A DNA stretch of 4,793 nucleotides, taken from a virus. Its lineage: Duplodnaviria; Heunggongvirae; Uroviricota; Caudoviricetes. This document shows, in pieces, positions 1-4,793 of this stretch. The notes beneath the pieces are model-generated. The model saw nothing but the letters and a program-made list of their open reading frames with translations, searched no databases and was not told where the DNA came from. Each line of letters opens with the position of its first letter. Positions within the stretch are counted from its first letter, which is position 1. The stretch covers positions 1-4,793 of the IMG/VR virus record IMGVR_UViG_2534682002_000009. The stretch is one strand, 5' to 3'. Made by a program: the position numbers and the translations under genes.

Positions 1-668
1 TGAACCTGACCTTTTGCCCGGCGCAGCTCGCGGTTAGCCACATGCAGCGATGGTAAAATCAGCCCATCCGGATGCTTTCTGGTGAACAACGGCTGTGACT
101 GCACTGTGACCGCCACACTTTCAGTTTTTATTTCTTCCTGTGTCGTCGTTTCCTGGACTGGTAACGCAACACCTGTTGGCTGAGGAAAGGCTTTACCATC
201 GGTTTCCGCTACGGATGCAGCTTCCGGCTCTGCCGGTAAATCAGCGCCCGGTATGCAGTAACGAAATTTACCGTTCTGATTTACGCGTGCCAGGCGCCCC
301 GTTGCTGTTACGACCGCCAACGTGGAAGCAACCTTGCGAATGCTAACACCGAACTTATCCGCCAGTTCCTCACACGTTTTAGCCCCATCCTGACAGATAA
401 ACTCAATCATCATGTCCGCGGTAACTTTTTGTTCGACCTCCCCGGTCAGCACATCCGGTACTTCAGACTGTGCTGGCTGCTCTTCGGTTACCCCGGATTC
501 ACCTTCACCAGCCAGAAACCAGGTGTGACCCGTTTTATCAACAACGCCATTTTTTTTGAGTTCCCACAGTTCGTTGAGAACTTCTTCACGGCTGATATCA
601 AGCCGCGCCGCCAGTTCAACAGAATTGGCTTTACCCATCGCTTTCAGTGCATGCAATACGGTTTCCAT
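1..668 (-). CDS. Hypothetical prophage protein with two winged-helix-like repeats; 3' end runs off the window (about 222 codons visible)
   Basis: Not in the ORF track because no stop lies in the window. Minus-strand ATG at 668..666 is preceded by GGAGG with an 8-nt spacer, 29 nt downstream of the DnaC-like stop. My manual translation is open to position 3 with no stop and begins [43 protein letters not shown], with a second similar repeat ([43 protein letters not shown]). Family assignment not possible without a search. Confidence 0.55.
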
Positions 669-697
669 TAAAACTTCCTCCGGATAAAAATTACTTC

Positions 698-1438
698 TCA
701 GTTCCTGTGCTGGCTGACGTTCGGACGCCAGCTCTCCCAGTTAAACGTCACCCAGCGACCACCGTTCATGGACATGCGGTCCATCACCCGCTCGCCGAGA
801 AGTGTATTCATCGCTGCATGGTTAAGATTTGTCAGCATCCCCACACTGAGTAACGATGCCGTTCTGCGGTCAACAATCTGATTCAGCGTGACCTGCTCAT
901 TACGCGTATCCCGTTGCATGCCAATTTCATCCAGTACCAGCAGGTCAACGCCACACAATCCCTGCAAAAATTTTTCGCCCGAGTTTTTGTTGTCGTAGCT
1001 GCCATGTAACGCCAGCATCACATCCGCCACTGTTATCACAATCACACTGCGACCTTTCGCCAGAAGGTGGTTGCCAATAGCCGCCGCCAGGTGGTTTTTT
1101 CCTGTGCCAGGCCGGCCACTGAACACAAAATTCGTACAGCCGCCTTCCAGCTCTGCCGCAATGGATTTCGCCTGACTCAGGGCATGGCGCTGACCATCGT
1201 TCTGCACCCGGTAGTTACCGAACGTACACTTCCGGTGAAGCGGCTGGATACCGGAGCGGTTAATGATTTTTTCAACCCGCGTCTGATGATTCAGACGATT
1301 AACCTCCTCGCTTCGCTTACGCCCTTCAGCAAGCTGCCATTCCCGCCACTCCGTCACCGTACGGTACGGAGGGATTGCATCCTGCGGCACAAATCTGCTG
1401 ACTCTTGCCAGAACACCACCTGACGTAATGTTTTTCAT
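698..1438 (-). CDS. DnaC-like AAA+ replicative helicase loader (phage replication protein)
   Basis: 246-aa ORF with Walker A ([15 protein letters not shown]) and Walker B (LLVLDEIG) motifs. ATG at 1438, GGGGG Shine-Dalgarno about 9 nt upstream, 6 nt after the stop of the upstream O-like gene. Gene order initiator then loader is typical of lambdoid replication modules. Confidence 0.88.
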
Positions 1439-1444
1439 GATGCG

Positions 1445-2410
1445 CTACCCCCTGAAACCCGGCGGAATTTCGGTATCCGGTTCAGAAATATGATTCACGC
1501 AACGCTGCGCGGGACCACGCCACAGTCGAATAACCAGTTCATCCCATTTCTCACGGAGTTTTTCCGGGCTCTTGATGTTTTTTATCCAGAACGGATCCCG
1601 TTGTGCCCGGCTGAACATTTCGCAAATTTGTCTGTGACTTCTTCCATCCAGCATCCGCATTGTGCGCACGTCATTGGCCCACGCCGTCCAGTTGGGCTCT
1701 TTCGGTCGCGTGATCTCACCATCGTCACTGGCAGCCTGTTCGTACAGGTTTACAACCCGCCCCCAGATCCACTGCGCACATGTCAAATCCTCCCGGGTTC
1801 CCCACTGGCGTTTTTTCACGCTGAACACAACAGCATCAGGATGGCGGGTTAAAAACGCCTGTTCAGCCGTCAACTCGTCCGGTTGCGAAGCGTCCGGACA
1901 AGAGAGTTTTTTATTCTCTGTTGTATTCTCTGTTGTATTCTCTGTAGGATCATCGGGCCATTTTGACCTGATGACATTGGGCCGTTTTGAACCAATGGAA
2001 CGTTTCATTTTGACCTCTTCCATCGTGTCATTTTGACCTGATGGAGTGGCGCATTTTGACCCGATGGATTCGTTCACTTTGCCATCATCTAAAAGCGCGC
2101 TATCGTAGTTAATTGTGTAAAAATTAGTCATATCACGCTTCGATTTATTGAGCTTTTCGCTACGCAAAAGCCCCAGCGCTTTCAGACTTGCAAACGCACG
2201 CTTTAACGTTGACTCTGACCAGAACGGAAACTGTTCCAGCCATTGTTCCGTTGTGTTGTAAATCCAGCGAACGCCATCACATTCCATGCCGGAACTGGTA
2301 TCCCTCAACCAGTAATGCAGTTGCTGCAACACAATGGCTTCGTTTAAACCAATCTTCATCGCCAGCTGTGTGTTTATAACCAGCGGGCGTTCAGCAAAAA
2401 GAAGGCTCAT
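1445..2410 (-). CDS. Replication initiator, lambda O-like (origin-binding), with iterons inside the coding sequence
   Basis: Long minus-strand ORF directly upstream of the DnaC-like gene. It contains five ~23-bp-spaced iterons (1957-2067), which produce a repeated SIGSK peptide, and a 12-bp tandem repeat encoding TENTTENTTEN. Start is uncertain: the track begins at a GTG at 2452 (335 aa); I prefer the first ATG at 2410 (321 aa, MSLLFAERPLV...). Neither has a clear SD, and either overlaps the upstream gene (20 or 62 nt), suggesting translational coupling. Confidence 0.8.
   Translation of the reverse strand: MSLLFAERPLVINTQLAMKIGLNEAIVLQQLHYWLRDTSSGMECDGVRWIYNTTEQWLEQFPFWSESTLKRAFASLKALGLLRSEKLNKSKRDMTNFYTINYDSALLDDGKVNESIGSKCATPSGQNDTMEEVKMKRSIGSKRPNVIRSKWPDDPTENTTENTTENKKLSCPDASQPDELTAEQAFLTRHPDAVVFSVKKRQWGTREDLTCAQWIWGRVVNLYEQAASDDGEITRPKEPNWTAWANDVRTMRMLDGRSHRQICEMFSRAQRDPFWIKNIKSPEKLREKWDELVIRLWRGPAQRCVNHISEPDTEIPPGFRG
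1912..1947. repeat. Direct tandem repeat, about three copies of a 12-bp unit (ATTCTCTGTTGT); encodes TENTTENTTEN in the O-like protein
   Basis: Read directly: ttattctctgttgtattctctgttgtattctctgtagg. It is in frame within the minus-strand CDS and lies next to the iteron array. Confidence 0.85.
1957..2067. repeat. Iteron array, putative prophage replication origin (five copies of CATTTTGACCYGATGG-like repeat)
   Basis: Copies begin near 1959 (cattttgacctgatg), 1982 (ccgttttgaaccaatgg), 2006 (cattttgacctcttcc), 2029 (cattttgacctgatgg) and 2052 (cattttgacccgatgg), spaced 23-24 bp. They sit inside the initiator gene as in lambda ori, flanked by moderately AT-rich DNA at about 2090-2135. Confidence 0.75.
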
Positions 2411-2912
2411 AATTCCATCCGGCTTTTTGTTGGTACTGGTGACGATAGGCACGCTTGAAAGCGATTGCTTTTTCTATAAGCTCGTCTGTCTCACGTTCCA
2501 CAACAGCTGGATCTGCAAAAAGCAGCCCGGACTCCACCACATCGCCATATTCTTTGTTTAACCCGGCAATCATGTACGTAATGCTTTTTCCGTCAGTAAT
2601 TTCGCGGTACAACCTGAAATCACTAATCCGGATAGCCTCCATAATTGCCGGAATCAGCGCCGTGAATTTTTCACGCTTATCCCTGGTGTCGATAGCCTTC
2701 CAGCGTTCGAATATCTTCACCCGGTTAACGCCAAGCGCACGCTGATCAACCCCGCCATCATCAAGCGTGACACGCTGAACATCGATGTTCGGGCGTTCCT
2801 GTAGAGCCCAGAAGGCTTCAGTAATTAATATCGTCGCCTGCTCCTGCGTCATTCCTGGTCTGCATACCCAGGCATCCAGAGCCTCGCAAACCTGTTCAGG
2901 TGTGATTTTCAT
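2391..2912 (-). CDS. Hypothetical prophage early protein in the YdaT/CII position
   Basis: 173-aa ORF. Its ATG at 2912 overlaps the 3' end of the Cro-like gene by 17 nt and its 3' end overlaps the initiator start. It occupies the slot between cro and the replication genes. No motif recognisable by eye; function is inferred from position only. Confidence 0.65.
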   Translation of the reverse strand: MKITPEQVCEALDAWVCRPGMTQEQATILITEAFWALQERPNIDVQRVTLDDGGVDQRALGVNRVKIFERWKAIDTRDKREKFTALIPAIMEAIRISDFRLYREITDGKSITYMIAGLNKEYGDVVESGLLFADPAVVERETDELIEKAIAFKRAYRHQYQQKAGWNYEPSFC

Positions 2913-3174
2913 TGTTCACCGCCAGTAATTCATTCGCTGTACTCTTACGTCCACAAGGCAGGCCATCGGTTGGGTTAGGGTAAATATCTGGTCGGAGCTC
3001 GTGGGGGGTGACAGTCCACGCCATAATCTCACATAGTTGTAAAACCCTTGATGCAGGGACCTGTTGCCCATTAACCCATCGACATACAACCTGCTGTGGC
3101 AACCCAATCAAGCGAGCAACACCCGCTTGGGATAACCCTATTTGGCGAATTTTATTTTTTAAACATTTATGCAT
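2896..3174 (-). CDS. Cro/YdaS-like HTH DNA-binding protein (lytic-side regulator)
   Basis: Track ORF 2896..3210 trimmed to the internal ATG at 3174, which has a GGAG SD 8 nt upstream (minus strand ggagttagcgatATG). Predicted HTH is SQAGVARLIGLPQQVVCRWVNG. It is divergent from the repressor gene and first in the leftward operon. Confidence 0.8.
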   Translation of the reverse strand: MHKCLKNKIRQIGLSQAGVARLIGLPQQVVCRWVNGQQVPASRVLQLCEIMAWTVTPHELRPDIYPNPTDGLPCGRKSTANELLAVNNENHT

Positions 3175-3281
3175 ATCGCTAACTCCAATCAATCGACACC
3201 ACTTATACACTTTAAAAGTTACACTATCAACACTTTCAAGCTGATTGTGCTGGCTACACTTTTTTTGTGTAAAATGAATGC
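3175..3281. promoter_or_regulatory. Divergent immunity region (OR-like): candidate operators and back-to-back promoters
   Basis: Palindromic ACTTTAAAAGT at 3209-3219, and ACACT(TT) repeated at 3207, 3221, 3230 and 3256. Minus-strand candidate promoter TTGATA (plus 3225-3230), 17-bp spacer, TATAAG (plus 3202-3207), about 25-30 nt upstream of the Cro-like ATG. Plus-strand TAAAAT at 3270-3275 lies immediately before the repressor ATG at 3282. Confidence 0.55.
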
Positions 3282-3689
3282 ATGAAGCGAATGACCACTC
3301 TTGAAATAACCACGTACCGGATAAAACTGGTGCTGGAAAAAACAGGGCTTAAGCAAGCAGAACTAGCCCGCAGAATAGGTGTTGCCCAACAATCGGTCCA
3401 AAAGTGGGTTCATGGCATCACAAGCCCATCAATGGCTAATCTTGATAAACTTTCTGAAGTAACAGGATTCCCTCCATATTGGTTTATGTTGCCACCAAGT
3501 GAGGACGAACAGATTGTGGTACCTGACACAATGAAAATAGGTCCGAAGCAAAGAGAGCTACTTCAGACATTTGGTGCATTCCCAGAGGAAGAACAGGGAC
3601 AAATGCTTCAGGAGATGAAAGACAAAAAAGAGTTAATGGAGCGCACAATTGAAAGATGGCTCGCTGCCCGGAAAGGGCATCGAGCATAA
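3282..3689 (+). CDS. paaR: XRE/CI-like HTH transcriptional repressor (PaaR-like); candidate prophage repressor and TA regulator
   Basis: 135-aa ORF with N-terminal HTH (LKQAELARRIGVAQQSVQKWVHG) and no LexA-like peptidase domain. Divergent from the Cro-like gene and first gene of the regulator-antitoxin-toxin cassette. The symbol is from remembered similarity to the O157:H7 PaaR-PaaA-ParE systems and is unverified. An alternative ATG at 3291 is possible. Confidence 0.8.
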   Translation: MKRMTTLEITTYRIKLVLEKTGLKQAELARRIGVAQQSVQKWVHGITSPSMANLDKLSEVTGFPPYWFMLPPSEDEQIVVPDTMKIGPKQRELLQTFGAFPEEEQGQMLQEMKDKKELMERTIERWLAARKGHRA

Positions 3690-3718
3690 TGACCACCATA
3701 CACAGACGGAGGTGTGCC

Positions 3719-3907
3719 ATGAATACGGCCCTTTCACCAATGGTTTCTGAGTTCGAAACCATTGAACAAGAAAACAGTTACAACGAATGGCTGCGTGCGA
3801 AAGTAGCAGCGAGCCTTGCAAATCCGCGCCCAGCAATTCCCCATGACGAGGTTGAGCGCAGAATGGCAGAACGCTTTGCTAAAATGCGCAAGGAACGGAG
3901 TAAGTAG
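3719..3907 (+). CDS. paaA: Small antitoxin (PaaA-like), partner of the ParE toxin
   Basis: Track ORF 3656..3907 trimmed to the ATG at 3719, which has a GGAGG SD with about 8-nt spacing; this gives 62 aa (MNTALSPMVSEFETIEQENSYNEWLRAKVAASLANPRPAIPHDEVERRMAERFAKMRKERSK). The stop is 3 nt before the ParE ATG. Size, charged helical character and position are typical of ParE antitoxins. I recall PaaA2 as 63 aa with a very similar sequence, unverified. Confidence 0.75.
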   Translation: MNTALSPMVSEFETIEQENSYNEWLRAKVAASLANPRPAIPHDEVERRMAERFAKMRKERSK

Positions 3908-3910
3908 TAA

Positions 3911-4198
3911 ATGTTACCCGTGTTATGGCTTGAAAGCGCAGATACCGACCTAGATGATATAACTAGTTATATTGCTCGTTTCGACATAGATGCGGCAGAA
4001 CGCTTATGGCAGCGATTAAGGGGGTGTGTGCTGCCGTTATCCGAACACCCGTATTTATACCCACCAAGCGACAGAGTACCTGGCTTGCGTGAGATTGTAG
4101 CTCACCCTAACTATATAATTCTTTACCGTGTAGCCACTTTAAGCATTGAGATCGTGAGTGTAGTACACGCCAGACGCCAATTCCCCAAGCAGAACTAA
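3911..4198 (+). CDS. parE: ParE/RelE-superfamily type II toxin (plasmid-stabilisation ParE-like)
   Basis: 95-aa ORF. The N-terminal LPVLWLESADTDLDDITSYIA and C-terminal YRV...IEIVSVVHARRQFP regions look like ParE-family toxins. It directly follows the small antitoxin ORF, has GGAG about 10 nt upstream, and is followed by a terminator. Confidence 0.88.
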   Translation: MLPVLWLESADTDLDDITSYIARFDIDAAERLWQRLRGCVLPLSEHPYLYPPSDRVPGLREIVAHPNYIILYRVATLSIEIVSVVHARRQFPKQN

Positions 4199-4211
4199 CC
4201 CTTTCACAGGG

Positions 4212-4235
4212 CCGTCTCATCTCGAGGCGGTTTTT
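4212..4235 (+). terminator. Rho-independent terminator ending the repressor-antitoxin-toxin operon
   Basis: Stem 4212-4218 (ccgtctc) pairs with 4224-4230 (gaggcgg), 7 bp with one G-U pair, 5-nt loop, then TTTTT at 4231-4235, 14 nt after the ParE stop. Confidence 0.6.
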
Positions 4236-4250
4236 GTTGCTCACAACCTA

Positions 4251-4284
4251 ACTTTATAAGTGTTGACATAATAACTTTAAAAGT
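4251..4284 (+). promoter_or_regulatory. OL-like region: two copies of the ACTTTAWAAGT operator motif flanking a candidate rightward promoter
   Basis: ACTTTATAAGT at 4251-4261 and ACTTTAAAAGT at 4274-4284, centres 23 bp apart; the second is identical to the site at 3209-3219. Between them are TTGACA (4263-4268) and an overlapping TGaCATAAT (4264-4272) resembling an extended -10. Which element acts as the promoter is not resolved. Confidence 0.45.
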
Positions 4285-4469
4285 GCATCCTTGTTTCACC
4301 AACCCACCCCATTCAACAGAACGCAGGGCAATACTTCGAGTTACCCGGCAGTGGTCAGGGGTTAAGTAGCCAGCCCGAGGCGTATGAACATGACGGCGGG
4401 AACACTTTGTATAACAGCGCAGCAGGTTTTTAGTTCCGCGACCCGGCGTTAAGGGTAAATGAGGTCAAC

Positions 4470-4622
4470 ATGGATATGCTCAATCTTGGCAACAATGAAT
4501 CTCTGGTGTGCGGAGTATTCCCCAACCACGACGGCACGTTTACCGCGATGACGTATACCAGAAGTAAAACGTTTAAAACCGAAGCTGGCGCGCATCGCTG
4601 GTTAGCAAGAAACGCTAACTGA
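4470..4622 (+). CDS. Small hypothetical prophage protein (50 aa), first gene of the rightward early operon
   Basis: Absent from the ORF track. ATG at 4470 with GAGG SD 5 nt upstream; my translation is MDMLNLGNNESLVCGVFPNHDGTFTAMTYTRSKTFKTEAGAHRWLARNAN, stop TGA at 4620-4622. It is in the position of the small ydaF/ydaG-type genes next to racR in Rac-like prophages; that family resemblance is from memory only. Confidence 0.5.
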   Translation: MDMLNLGNNESLVCGVFPNHDGTFTAMTYTRSKTFKTEAGAHRWLARNAN

Positions 4623-4660
4623 TTAGCGCCAGTAAAAACAGGTTTCCACAGGTTAATTTA

Positions 4661-4676
4661 CCCTGAAAAGTCAGGG
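4661..4676 (+). other. Short hairpin, CCCTGA-AAAG-TCAGGG (boxB-like shape)
   Basis: 6-bp perfect stem with a 4-nt A-rich loop, 39 nt after the small ORF stop. No T-run follows on either strand, so it is not a canonical terminator. Confidence 0.35.
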
Positions 4677-4686
4677 CATAACACGA

Positions 4687-4750
4687 AAGCGCACGGCGAA
4701 GTTAGTCTCTCTGTATAGGTCGTCGTTAAATTTAATTCGACCGTGCGCTT
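4687..4750. repeat. Long imperfect inverted repeat (10-bp perfect arms AAGCGCACGG / CCGTGCGCTT, 44-bp spacer)
   Basis: Read directly: aagcgcacgg at 4687-4696 and ccgtgcgctt at 4741-4750. The arms extend with one bulge (cgaa / ttcga) to about 14 bp. No flanking T-run. Confidence 0.5.
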
Positions 4751-4793
4751 CTGGTTGTGGCAATCCGCGAAATGGCGCGGCGGTAAGTATGGC

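Follow-up and report, generated by a model that had tools for sequence, protein, structure and literature searches.

The closest described relative of the locus studied here is the paaR2-paaA2-parE2 system of CP-933P (Sp12) in E. coli O157:H7 (Hallez, 2010, as cited in PMC8630535), a cryptic prophage (PMC8630535; PMC9986795). In CP-933P, the double role of the regulator as prophage repressor and as regulator of the toxin-antitoxin (TA) pair was shown experimentally (Jurenas et al., 2021; PMC8630535): PaaR2 is the analogue of CI, YdaS that of Cro and YdaT that of CII, PaaR2 represses both PR and PL, operators are present at OR and OL, and the switch is bistable (PMC8630535). A second O157:H7 system, paaR1-paaA1-parE1 of CP-933M, presumably has the same three-gene layout (PMC8630535). 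Two other points of comparison are the cI-rexA-rexB operon of phage lambda (PMC9986795) and DicA of the Qin prophage of E. coli K-12. DicA-type repressors, which also include those of Gifsy-1/2 and the cI of PhiR42_1, occupy the same slot, upstream of the DUF1391/ydfA ... dicB operon.

In this study, we have analysed a stretch of 4,793 nucleotides from a virus of the Caudoviricetes (IMG/VR record IMGVR_UViG_2534682002_000009, positions 1 to 4,793), called the window below. The window very probably covers the region for immunity and replication in an E. coli prophage of the lambdoid Rac/Qin/CP-933P type, and the explanation that best accounts for the data, which we hold with high confidence, is a prophage repressor that has PaaA2-ParE2 as passengers. 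Judged by its sequence, the window is a hetero-immune allele of the CP-933P-type system. What is new relative to the published O157:H7 example is only the different DNA-binding domain of the repressor and its different operators.

Layout and genomic setting of the cassette

The ORF calls place three co-oriented genes at 3282-4198 on the plus strand, coding for an HTH regulator (135 aa), a PaaA antitoxin (62 aa) and a ParE toxin (95 aa). These genes and their surroundings are as follows.

2391 to 2912, minus strand: YdaT-family gene, analogue of CII, 173 aa (Pfam YdaT_toxin, E 1e-5)
2896 to 3174, minus strand: YdaS-family Cro-like gene, 92 aa, ATG at 3174 (Pfam YdaS_toxin, E 1.3e-10, and HTH_3)
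3202 to 3230, minus strand: predicted PR, toward the Cro-like gene (-35 TTGATA 3230-3225, 17-nt spacer, -10 TATAAG 3207-3202)
3208 to 3243, no strand: predicted OR operator pair, CACTTTAAAAGTT (3208-3220) and CACTTTCAAGCTG (3231-3243), centres 23 bp apart
3257 to 3269, no strand: candidate third operator (OR3-like), CACTTTTTTTGTG, weak, directly upstream of the PRM -10 box
3270 to 3275, plus strand: predicted PRM -10 box TAAAAT, 6 nt before ATG 3282, with a leaderless repressor mRNA predicted from the sequence
3282 to 3689, plus strand: repressor/regulator gene, 135 aa (Pfam HTH_3, E 1.3e-13)
3719 to 3907, plus strand: PaaA2-type antitoxin gene, 62 aa (Pfam PaaA2, PF21217, E 1.4e-19)
3911 to 4198, plus strand: ParE2-type toxin gene, 95 aa (Pfam ParE_toxin, PF05016, E 8e-16)
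4212 to 4238, plus strand: intrinsic terminator by RNA fold, a 7-bp hairpin (4212-4218/4224-4230) followed by UUUUUGUU
4250 to 4285, no strand: predicted OL operator pair, AACTTTATAAGTG (4250-4262) and AACTTTAAAAGTG (4273-4285), centres 23 bp apart
4263 to 4291, plus strand: predicted PL, toward the DUF1391 gene (-35 TTGACA 4263-4268, 17-nt spacer containing OL1, weak -10 CATCCT 4286-4291)

Gene identities and arrangement were thus observed directly, and they bear out much of the original prediction: three linked plus-strand genes (gaps of 29 nt between regulator and paaA and of 3 nt between paaA and parE), a divergent Cro-like gene (the YdaS-like ORF at 2896-3174) and a terminator after parE (the hairpin followed by its U-run). 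The PaaR-PaaA-ParE identity and the cI-rexAB position in a lambdoid immunity region, also proposed there, agree with PaaA and ParE being about 95% and 93% identical to PaaA2 and ParE2, and with flanks made up of YdaS/YdaT, O-like and DnaC-like genes on one side and DUF1391 on the other. The expectation that the genes are probably not new was correct, as the arrangement has already been described for the E. coli lambda-like prophage CP-933P (PMC8630535). A Shine-Dalgarno sequence had been claimed for each gene. This holds for paaA (GGAGG 3708-3712, 6 nt before the ATG) and parE (GGAG 3897-3900, 10 nt before the ATG), both read from the sequence, but not for the regulator gene, where the TAAAAT box at 3270-3275 sits 6 nt before ATG 3282 and no such sequence is present; the RefSeq start of the regulator is the second ATG, at window position 3291 (132 aa). 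The YdaS-like ORF has a Shine-Dalgarno sequence (GGAG) upstream of ATG 3174, which is also the RefSeq start within a 100%-identical segment, and the 173-aa YdaT-family protein matches PHROG 163, "CII-like transcriptional activator" (E 2.7e-41). The regulator is the first gene of an operon that has a single terminator, 3' of parE, and the consensus promoter scan found no promoter-like site before paaA. An Rfam scan of the whole window (E<=1) gave no RNA families. RefSeq labels these genes only as "helix-turn-helix domain-containing protein", "hypothetical protein" or "RelB family antitoxin".

The likeness to lambda lies in a single leftward operon in which passenger genes come after the repressor gene, in a leaderless repressor mRNA (predicted for the window; PMC9986795), in a cassette placed between operator/promoter sets that are inverted copies, and in Cro/CII/O/P-type genes on the other side. 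The differences are that the regulator has no homology to lambda CI beyond the generic HTH fold and no peptidase domain, that the passengers are a type II TA pair instead of RexAB, and that the window has only two strong predicted operators per side.

The closest fully assembled host, 2012C-4227, is 99.2% identical over positions 1-4626 of the window, and its prophage (about 47 kb, within ydfJ) has integrase, lysis, head and tail genes that are all annotated as intact. This prophage looks complete rather than cryptic and, judged from such relatives, that of the window would be intact as well. This bears on the possibility that the cassette is a decaying, functionless remnant in a defective prophage, for which one could cite the cryptic state of CP-933P, the frameshifted parE in the relative L004 (strain A19) and about 680 bp downstream of the DUF1391 gene that the closest relatives have and the window lacks. 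We give this reading very little credence: all three ORFs are intact, ParE does not deviate from the crystallised toxin in residues 1-73, the operators have changed less than the sequence around them and, as noted, the closest assembled prophage looks complete.

The regulator and its mosaic relation to CP-933P

The regulator is built from an N-terminal Cro/CI-type HTH, a linker and a C-terminal two-helix domain that is common to PaaR2 and DicA. The predicted HTH domain was recovered by Pfam (HTH_3, E 1.3e-13), the AlphaFold2 model (pLDDT 83) has two helices in its C-terminal part, and Foldseek matched this model to the HTH domains of P22 c2, 434, lambda and SinR; in a PDB sequence search, the sole match was the HTH domain of the 434 repressor (E 7.5e-4), and a structure of PaaR2 was absent. 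DicA has the same length (135 aa) and the same order of HTH, linker and helical C-terminal domain. The NCBIfam DicA model (NF007257) aligns over the full length of the protein (12-132 to 8-131 of 135, E 1.6e-17), but the score of 63.6 bits lies below the curated cutoff of 101 bits, and the regulator is therefore a distant relative of DicA and not a member by the curated criterion. By tblastn, it is 28-36% identical to genes annotated dicA or cI, with a distant likeness to the repressors of Gifsy-1/2. Homologues in Klebsiella, Morganella, Enterobacter and a metagenome hold the same position opposite YdaS/YdaT, carry no TA and have other cargo, and because the slot is the same with other cargo in other genera, we take the regulator to be primarily a DicA-like prophage repressor. 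Neither Pfam nor NCBIfam matches include an S24 or RecA-cleavable peptidase domain; therefore, induction of a prophage under its control would presumably occur by another route. Taken together, the regulator would be a short DicA/PaaR-type analogue of CI without a self-cleaving peptidase domain, its repressor function being transferred from CP-933P.

The window and CP-933P have in common the order regulator-PaaA-ParE-terminator-PL, with YdaS and YdaT read in the opposite direction, a set of operators at either end of the cassette, and paaA-parE DNA that is 92.8% identical. The C-terminal 55 aa of the regulator are also shared with PaaR2 (29/55 identical, 53%, BLASTP E 4e-16), whereas the N-terminal DNA-binding half is 18% identical to it and gives no significant BLASTP alignment; Pfam HTH_3 matches the window regulator and not PaaR2. 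Likewise, the Cro (YdaS) proteins are 22% and the YdaT proteins 35% identical, the operators have the form ACTTTnAAAGT in the window against a published half-site consensus of GTTTAGTAA in CP-933P, and the window ParE exceeds ParE2 by 3 aa and has another sequence in its C-terminal ~20 residues. The suggested alignment to PaaR2/PaaA2/ParE2 therefore succeeded for PaaA, ParE and the C-terminal 55 aa of the regulator and failed for its DNA-binding half. As the regulator is not an orthologue of PaaR2 in this half, the published CP-933P operators do not apply here.

The mosaic relation is visible in the DNA itself, where O157 matches the window only at 3718-4186 and 4298-4459 (the leader after PL). 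The HTH half and Cro, at 18% and 22% identity to O157, are 95-97% and 74-82% identical to the same-immunity relatives L003-L006. The HTH half co-varies with Cro, and the C-terminal half stays 50-81% identical across four immunity types. Since the HTH is unrelated in sequence, the transfer of function from PaaR2 rests on position, on the operator repeats and on the shared C-terminal domain. Repressor function, Cro competition, bistability and post-segregational killing come from the work on CP-933P (PMC8630535), and we infer that these functions would carry over to the window allele despite its different DNA-binding domain and operators. The dual repressor/TA-regulator role was part of the original prediction; it was already published for CP-933P (PMC8630535) and would apply to the window allele by analogy, with a different HTH and different operators.

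Operators, promoters and terminator

The regions 3175-3281 and 4245-4290 had been named as candidate binding regions of the regulator, and each contains two operator-like ACTTTnAAAGT palindromes (3208-3243 and 4250-4285). At up to two mismatches, the pattern CACTTTNAAAGTG matches the window only at 3208, 3231, 4250 and 4273, that is, four times against 0.33 expected (0/200 shuffles reach four). A 31-nt inverted repeat joins 3205-3235 to 4258-4288 (81% complementary), and the predicted PR region is an inverted copy of the PL region. Conservation was observed on both sides: the OR palindromes are kept in L003-L006, and the OL block CTAACTTTATAAGTGTTGACA-N5-ACTTTAAAAGTGCAT is almost invariant in the same relatives while its flanks diverge. 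In the Klebsiella relative (L011), the search for an operator layout gave no readable pattern, its one result being a second, directly repeated copy of the PR -35 region on the far side of the cargo gene. The OR3-like site is seen only when three mismatches are allowed, which by itself is chance level, and is backed by its position only: it lies within the PRM spacer, its distance from the centre of OR2 being 26 bp.

In silico, the palindromes at 3208-3220 and 3231-3243, within the 107-bp intergenic region between YdaS and the regulator, overlap the predicted PR. Its -35 box is invariant and its -10 region is kept in five relatives. The predicted PL is analogous to PL933P, the CP-933P promoter repressed by PaaR2 and YdaS (PMC8630535); its -35 box TTGACA is invariant in six loci and its -10 box is poor. 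The geometry -10-N6-ATG of the predicted PRM also occurs in CP-933P paaR2 (GATAAT-N6-ATG), in L007 and in the Klebsiella L011, and the paaR2 mRNA of CP-933P was found to be leaderless by 5' RACE and N-terminal sequencing (PMC8630535). The terminator hairpin and T-run are also present at the aligned position in L003-L006. PR, PL and the terminator all escaped a consensus promoter/terminator scan, which returned chance-level hits only; this scanner demands a T at position 6 of the -10 box, and that of PR is TATAAG. For these three elements, placement relied on a reading of the DNA, on the inverted repeat and on conservation. The published YdaT site TTGATT-N6-AATCAA had no match above chance and the ydaS/ydaT junction contains no short inverted repeats, so we do not propose a PRE analogue. 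The RNA structure of the conserved PL leader was no more stable than that of shuffles, with one compensatory pair only.

The 135-aa protein would most likely bind ACTTTnAAAGT in OR (3208-3243, possibly also 3257-3269) and in OL (4250-4285). Such binding would shut off PR, and with it the Cro-like YdaS, the CII-like YdaT and the replication genes, as well as PL and its DUF1391/dicB-type early-left operon. A different reading would make the regulator the detached DNA-binding half of a "split antitoxin" that serves the TA operon only, with the Cro-like neighbour being incidental. The antitoxin has indeed no DNA-binding domain, HTH_3 is common in antitoxins, the regulator has weak NCBIfam matches to the MqsA, HipB and Y4mF antitoxin families, and the system has historically been described as a three-component TA (PMC8630535, introduction). 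However, the same palindromes recur beyond the operon terminator, before the early-left genes, the regulator homologues sit in the identical position in other genera without any TA, the DicA model aligns over the full length, and repression of PR and PL by PaaR2 is experimental in CP-933P (PMC8630535). Based on this, we consider the split antitoxin highly improbable and retain the prophage repressor.

The toxin-antitoxin passengers and a possible portability of the cassette

Protein searches against PaaA and ParE/RelE models, which had been suggested as a check, recovered PF21217 (E 1.4e-19) and PF05016 (E 8e-16) and matched the crystallised PaaA2 and ParE2. PaaA scores 70.2 bits against PF21217 (cutoff 27) and 83.8 bits against NCBIfam NF050103 (cutoff 50), and 58/61 aligned residues are identical to PaaA2 in PDB 3zbe/5cw7 (E 4e-34, three substitutions). 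PaaA2 is its sole Pfam match, and no DNA-binding domain was detected in the 62 aa. ParE scores 58.8 bits against PF05016 (cutoff 23) and matches ParE2 in PDB 5cw7_B (E 1.2e-57), with weaker matches to Caulobacter ParE1 (3kxe) and 6x0a; its residues 1-73 equal those of ParE2 exactly, and the differences are concentrated in the final ~20 residues. Neutralisation of ParE2 toxicity by the cognate antitoxin was demonstrated for the O157 homologue only (PMC8630535).

The repressor mRNA probably begins at the A of ATG 3282, being leaderless, and would carry paaA2 and parE2 as passengers up to the terminator at 4212-4238, so that the TA would be co-expressed with the repressor in lysogeny, in the rexAB slot of lambda. 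PaaA would neutralise ParE by direct binding and, because it lacks a DNA-binding domain of its own, its transcription would depend on the phage switch. The most likely role of the TA would be addiction, in which losing or replacing the immunity region carries a penalty through a labile PaaA and a stable ParE; protection of this region against replacement by the TA was proposed by Jurenas et al. (PMC8630535). In CP-933P, toxin activity was no different between the two transcriptional states and ParE2 activity was undetected in either (PMC8630535), and for this reason a biological benefit of the TA is only proposed. The coupling of toxin expression to lysogeny put forward originally thus survives as the proposed co-expression of the TA with the repressor, but not in the sense of toxin release, since the CP-933P states are equal in toxin activity.

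PaaA2-ParE2 could also act mainly in anti-phage defence or exclusion, like RexAB, rather than in addiction, and the two roles are not mutually exclusive. Its position is equivalent to that of rexAB (PMC9986795) and, in the Klebsiella relative, PADLOC assigns the gene that follows the homologous repressor to its defence candidates (PDC-S42, E 1e-86), which suggests that the repressor-adjacent slot collects defence-type cargo. By contrast, neither PaaA nor ParE matches a PADLOC defence model (the PADLOC matches of the regulator are to its generic HTH domain only), and the sole phenotype demonstrated in the sister system is ClpAP/ClpXP-dependent post-segregational killing with plasmid stabilisation (PMC8630535). 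We found no phage challenge data, and we regard defence as the main function as unlikely, keeping addiction as the preferred role.

At least four different sets of repressor, Cro and operators occur with this TA, and the breakpoints lie where paaA begins and within the 3' end of parE. The C-terminus of PaaA is swapped together with the N-terminus of ParE as a specificity unit, and L005 and L006 have a second specificity type of these parts beside window-type regulators; megablast with this second-type cassette did not retrieve the second O157:H7 locus. The repressor C-terminal domain and the N-terminal 44 residues of PaaA are conserved across all types. A speculative reading, which we think quite unlikely as a whole, is that PaaA-ParE is a portable "immunity-region lock" that survives repressor swaps. 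If true, the TA complex could contact the C-terminal domain of the repressor and feed the toxin:antitoxin status into the lysis-lysogeny switch. The conservation of this domain and of PaaA may equally reflect oligomerisation constraints and recombination history.

Conceptually, there is little new here, as the repressor-plus-TA architecture and the CI-like logic are already published. Nevertheless, the allele is a natural specificity swap, with the same PaaA2-ParE2 cargo and the same type of repressor C-terminal domain combined with a different HTH, Cro and operators, and it can serve to study how PaaR-type repressors read their operators and whether the TA guards the immunity region against replacement. 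The prophage that carries the proposed lock is apparently intact and carries NleC.

Composition of the cassette

The original prediction described a regulator, an antitoxin-like ORF and a ParE-like toxin in tandem at 3282-4198, and this three-gene cassette proved to be real, with gaps of exactly 29 nt (regulator to 62-aa ORF) and 3 nt (62-aa to 95-aa ORF) and a terminator at its end.

Gene map of the window
698-1438, minus, DnaC-like loader
1445-2452, minus, O-like replication initiator
2391-2912, minus, YdaT-family gene
2896-3174, minus, YdaS/Cro-like gene
3282-3689, plus, 135-aa HTH protein
3719-3907, plus, 62-aa ORF
3911-4198, plus, 95-aa ORF
4212-4230, 7-bp hairpin followed by UUUUUGUU, terminator closing the operon (RNA fold)
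4470-4622, plus, DUF1391 gene

A Shine-Dalgarno (SD) sequence had been expected before each gene of the cassette. By sequence reading, this holds for the 62-aa ORF (GGAGG, 6 nt 5') and the 95-aa ORF (GGAG, 10 nt 5'), and not for the first gene, which has none. For the Cro-like gene, a mechanical ORF list extends the start to GTG 3210; the annotated start is ATG 3174, which has an SD. The O-like replication gene contains five 23-bp direct repeats of the CATCGGGCCATTTTGACCTGATG type, spaced by 23-24 bp (1951-2066), as well as three 12-bp tandem repeats (1909-1950), and these repeats resemble iterons, as in a lambdoid origin that lies within its initiator gene.

The assignment to the PaaR-PaaA-ParE type was borne out by Pfam and PDB searches. 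The 62-aa protein matches PaaA2 (E 1.4e-19), and its alignment to the crystallised E. coli O157:H7 PaaA2 shows 3 differences in 61 positions; the 95-aa protein matches ParE_toxin (E 8e-16) and the ParE2 structure 5cw7_B (E 1e-57), being the same through residue 73 and divergent over the last ~20 residues. A second toxin-antitoxin (TA) specificity type is present at three E. coli loci (L005, L006 and the diverged L007) and in O104. In this type, the C-terminal 18 residues of PaaA (17-33% identity) and the N-terminal 40 residues of ParE (50-52%) change together, and the PaaA N-terminus (84-95%) and the C-terminal part of ParE (73-91%) remain conserved. When window 3719-4198 is compared with L005, L006, L007 and L009, DNA identity drops to 37-60% over 3870-4049. 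From these alignments, the joint switch looks like an exchange of the cognate-recognition unit inside the TA pair. In E. coli A19 (L004), the ParE gene is frameshifted (3261-3540) beside an intact regulator and PaaA, a case of a decaying toxin in this family.

The regulator and its operators

The HTH domain of the 135-aa protein is of the Cro/CI type (HTH_3, E 1.3e-13), and the NCBIfam DicA repressor model spans the protein's full length at 63.6 bits, below the family cutoff of 101. The protein is 28-36% identical to dicA- or cI-annotated genes and to the Gifsy-1/2 repressors in phage records. Its AlphaFold model (mean pLDDT 83) comprises a five-helix HTH domain (6-69), which superposes on the DNA-binding domains of P22 c2, 434, lambda and SinR, a linker of low confidence and, at the C-terminus, a helix-turn-long-helix part (88-133); no peptidase domain was detected in the protein.

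A search of the window for CACTTTNAAAGTG at ≤2 mismatches returned 4 matches against 0.33 expected, a count reached by none of 200 shuffles. All four fall in the two regions that had been named for operators, and none elsewhere in the window.

Palindromes found with the CACTTTNAAAGTG pattern
3208-3220 and 3231-3243, OR, between the divergent genes
4250-4262 and 4273-4285, OL, 3' of the terminator

Within each pair the palindrome centres are 23 bp apart, and a 31-nt inverted repeat (81% complementary) joining 3205-3235 and 4258-4288 shows the OR and OL regions to be mirror copies. Both hold a -35 box (TTGATA or TTGACA) with an operator inside the 17-nt spacer, and the predicted promoters face outward, PR towards the Cro-like gene and PL towards DUF1391. 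Four E. coli relatives that share this HTH domain (L003-L006) keep these blocks almost unchanged, whereas the neighbouring spacer and terminator sequences diverge. Such conserved operators, together with intact ORFs, argue against the cassette being a decaying relic, which we hold to be very unlikely. A candidate third OR site (3257-3269) is no better than chance when taken alone.

The regulator gene has a -10 box (TAAAAT, 3270-3275) 6 nt 5' of ATG 3282 and no SD. This -10-N6-ATG spacing is common to L007, a Klebsiella homologue and paaR2 of CP-933P (a cryptic prophage of E. coli O157:H7), the last of which was shown by 5' RACE and N-terminal sequencing to be leaderless (PMC8630535); on these grounds we predict that the mRNA begins at 3282 and has no leader. 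RefSeq places the start at the second ATG (3291, 132 aa), whereas the promoter geometry favours the first (135 aa, leaderless).

Between the predicted PL and the DUF1391 gene, the leader (4298-4455) contains a ~90-nt core (about 4316-4398) that hardly varies among eight hetero-immune prophage loci and is conserved beyond the surrounding operators and genes. The core has no Rfam match and no conserved ORF; the leader does not fold more stably than its shuffles (z +1.44), with only one compensatory pair seen. A nutL-like site is possible, as is some other signal acting at the DNA or RNA level.

Comparison with CP-933P

Jurenas et al. (2021) examined paaR2-paaA2-parE2 in the CP-933P immunity region. 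They showed that PaaR2 functions as a CI analogue, repressing PR and PL and, at low level, activating PRM, that YdaS is the Cro counterpart and competes for the operators that PaaR2 uses, and that YdaT, the CII counterpart, activates a promoter of PRE type (PMC8630535). They also showed the locus to be bistable and the region to keep a plasmid stable through post-segregational killing, with no difference in ParE2 activity (SOS induction) between the states (PMC8630535). Reading our regulator as a prophage repressor is thus supported, and the idea that it serves both lysogeny and the TA genes had already been tested in this sister system (PMC8630535).

The two loci nevertheless differ. O157:H7 DNA matches the window only at 3718-4186 (92.8%, from the start of paaA almost to the end of parE) and in the leader after PL (about 4298-4459). 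Against CP-933P, the N-terminal half of the regulator is 18% identical and its C-terminal 58 aa 50% (BLASTP 53% over 55 aa, E 4e-16), with Cro at 22% and YdaT at 35%; the published CP-933P operator half-site GTTTAGTAA is absent here. Judged from sequence, the window is a hetero-immune allele that shares the TA cargo of CP-933P and differs from it in the repressor's DNA-binding domain, in Cro and in the operators. It is this allele that is new, its kind being known and experimentally characterised in CP-933P.

Gene identities, layout and operators are established in this analysis; the function of this allele is one that we infer by transfer from CP-933P, and on that analogy the following mechanism as a whole is very probable. 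The repressor would bind the OR and OL palindromes and silence PR and PL, probably as an oligomer via its C-domain, as suggested by the octamerisation cited for PaaR2 (PMC8630535). PRM would yield a leaderless repressor-paaA-parE transcript ending at 4231-4238, PaaA would neutralise ParE, and loss or replacement of the region would leave stable ParE unopposed.

Alternative cargos and the host prophage

Some match to the cassette occurs in 634 of 5,426 complete E. coli genomes, and this version in only about 20-23 of them. In an O104:H4 prophage the regulator is 166 aa long, and its HTH domain is different again. Regulator homologues (54-64% identity) in Klebsiella michiganensis, Morganella, Enterobacter asburiae and a metagenome contig all lie opposite YdaS/YdaT and replication genes, and are followed by genes other than PaaA/ParE.

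Alternative cargo genes in the slot after the repressor
L011 (Klebsiella relative), 3523-4443
L014 (regulator-homologue locus), 3665-4640
L013 (regulator-homologue locus), 1375-1806
L015 (regulator-homologue locus), 3618-4404

Since these homologues lack the TA genes in the same setting, the regulator family is first of all a prophage repressor and the slot behind it takes various cargos, the TA being one of them, in agreement with the TA insertion into the immunity region suggested in print (PMC8630535). With the OL sites, they also leave little room for a dedicated regulator serving the TA alone, to which we give hardly any weight. In the Klebsiella locus, the cargo gene matches PDC-S42, a candidate defence gene in PADLOC (E 1e-86), which lends something to the view that PaaA-ParE is a defence module like RexAB; this view is compatible with the repressor-plus-TA mechanism, but PaaA and ParE have no PADLOC match and phage-challenge data were not found, so we consider it improbable. 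Another non-E. coli locus carries a DUF6414 protein as cargo, and several others carry proteins without a family.

The closest assembled context of the window is strain 2012C-4227 (99.2% identical over 1-4626), where a roughly 47-kb prophage occupies ydfJ, the Qin site (NZ_CP013029.1, about 2,051,000-2,098,800). Integrase, excisionase, exonuclease, Q-type antiterminator, lysis, terminase, head and tail genes and nleC are annotated without frameshifts and, unlike CP-933P, this prophage seems complete. All close E. coli genomes have ~680 bp or more 3' of the DUF1391 gene that are absent from the window: after a gap at 4626-4658, the match picks up at 4658, further along in the relatives, and the missing segment removes the 'hypothetical protein' gene next after DUF1391 in 2012C-4227. 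Besides the effector gene nleC, the 2012C-4227 prophage has three tRNA genes and a SASA esterase at the stx-like position, and no stx genes; it directly adjoins the tail-fibre end of a second prophage.
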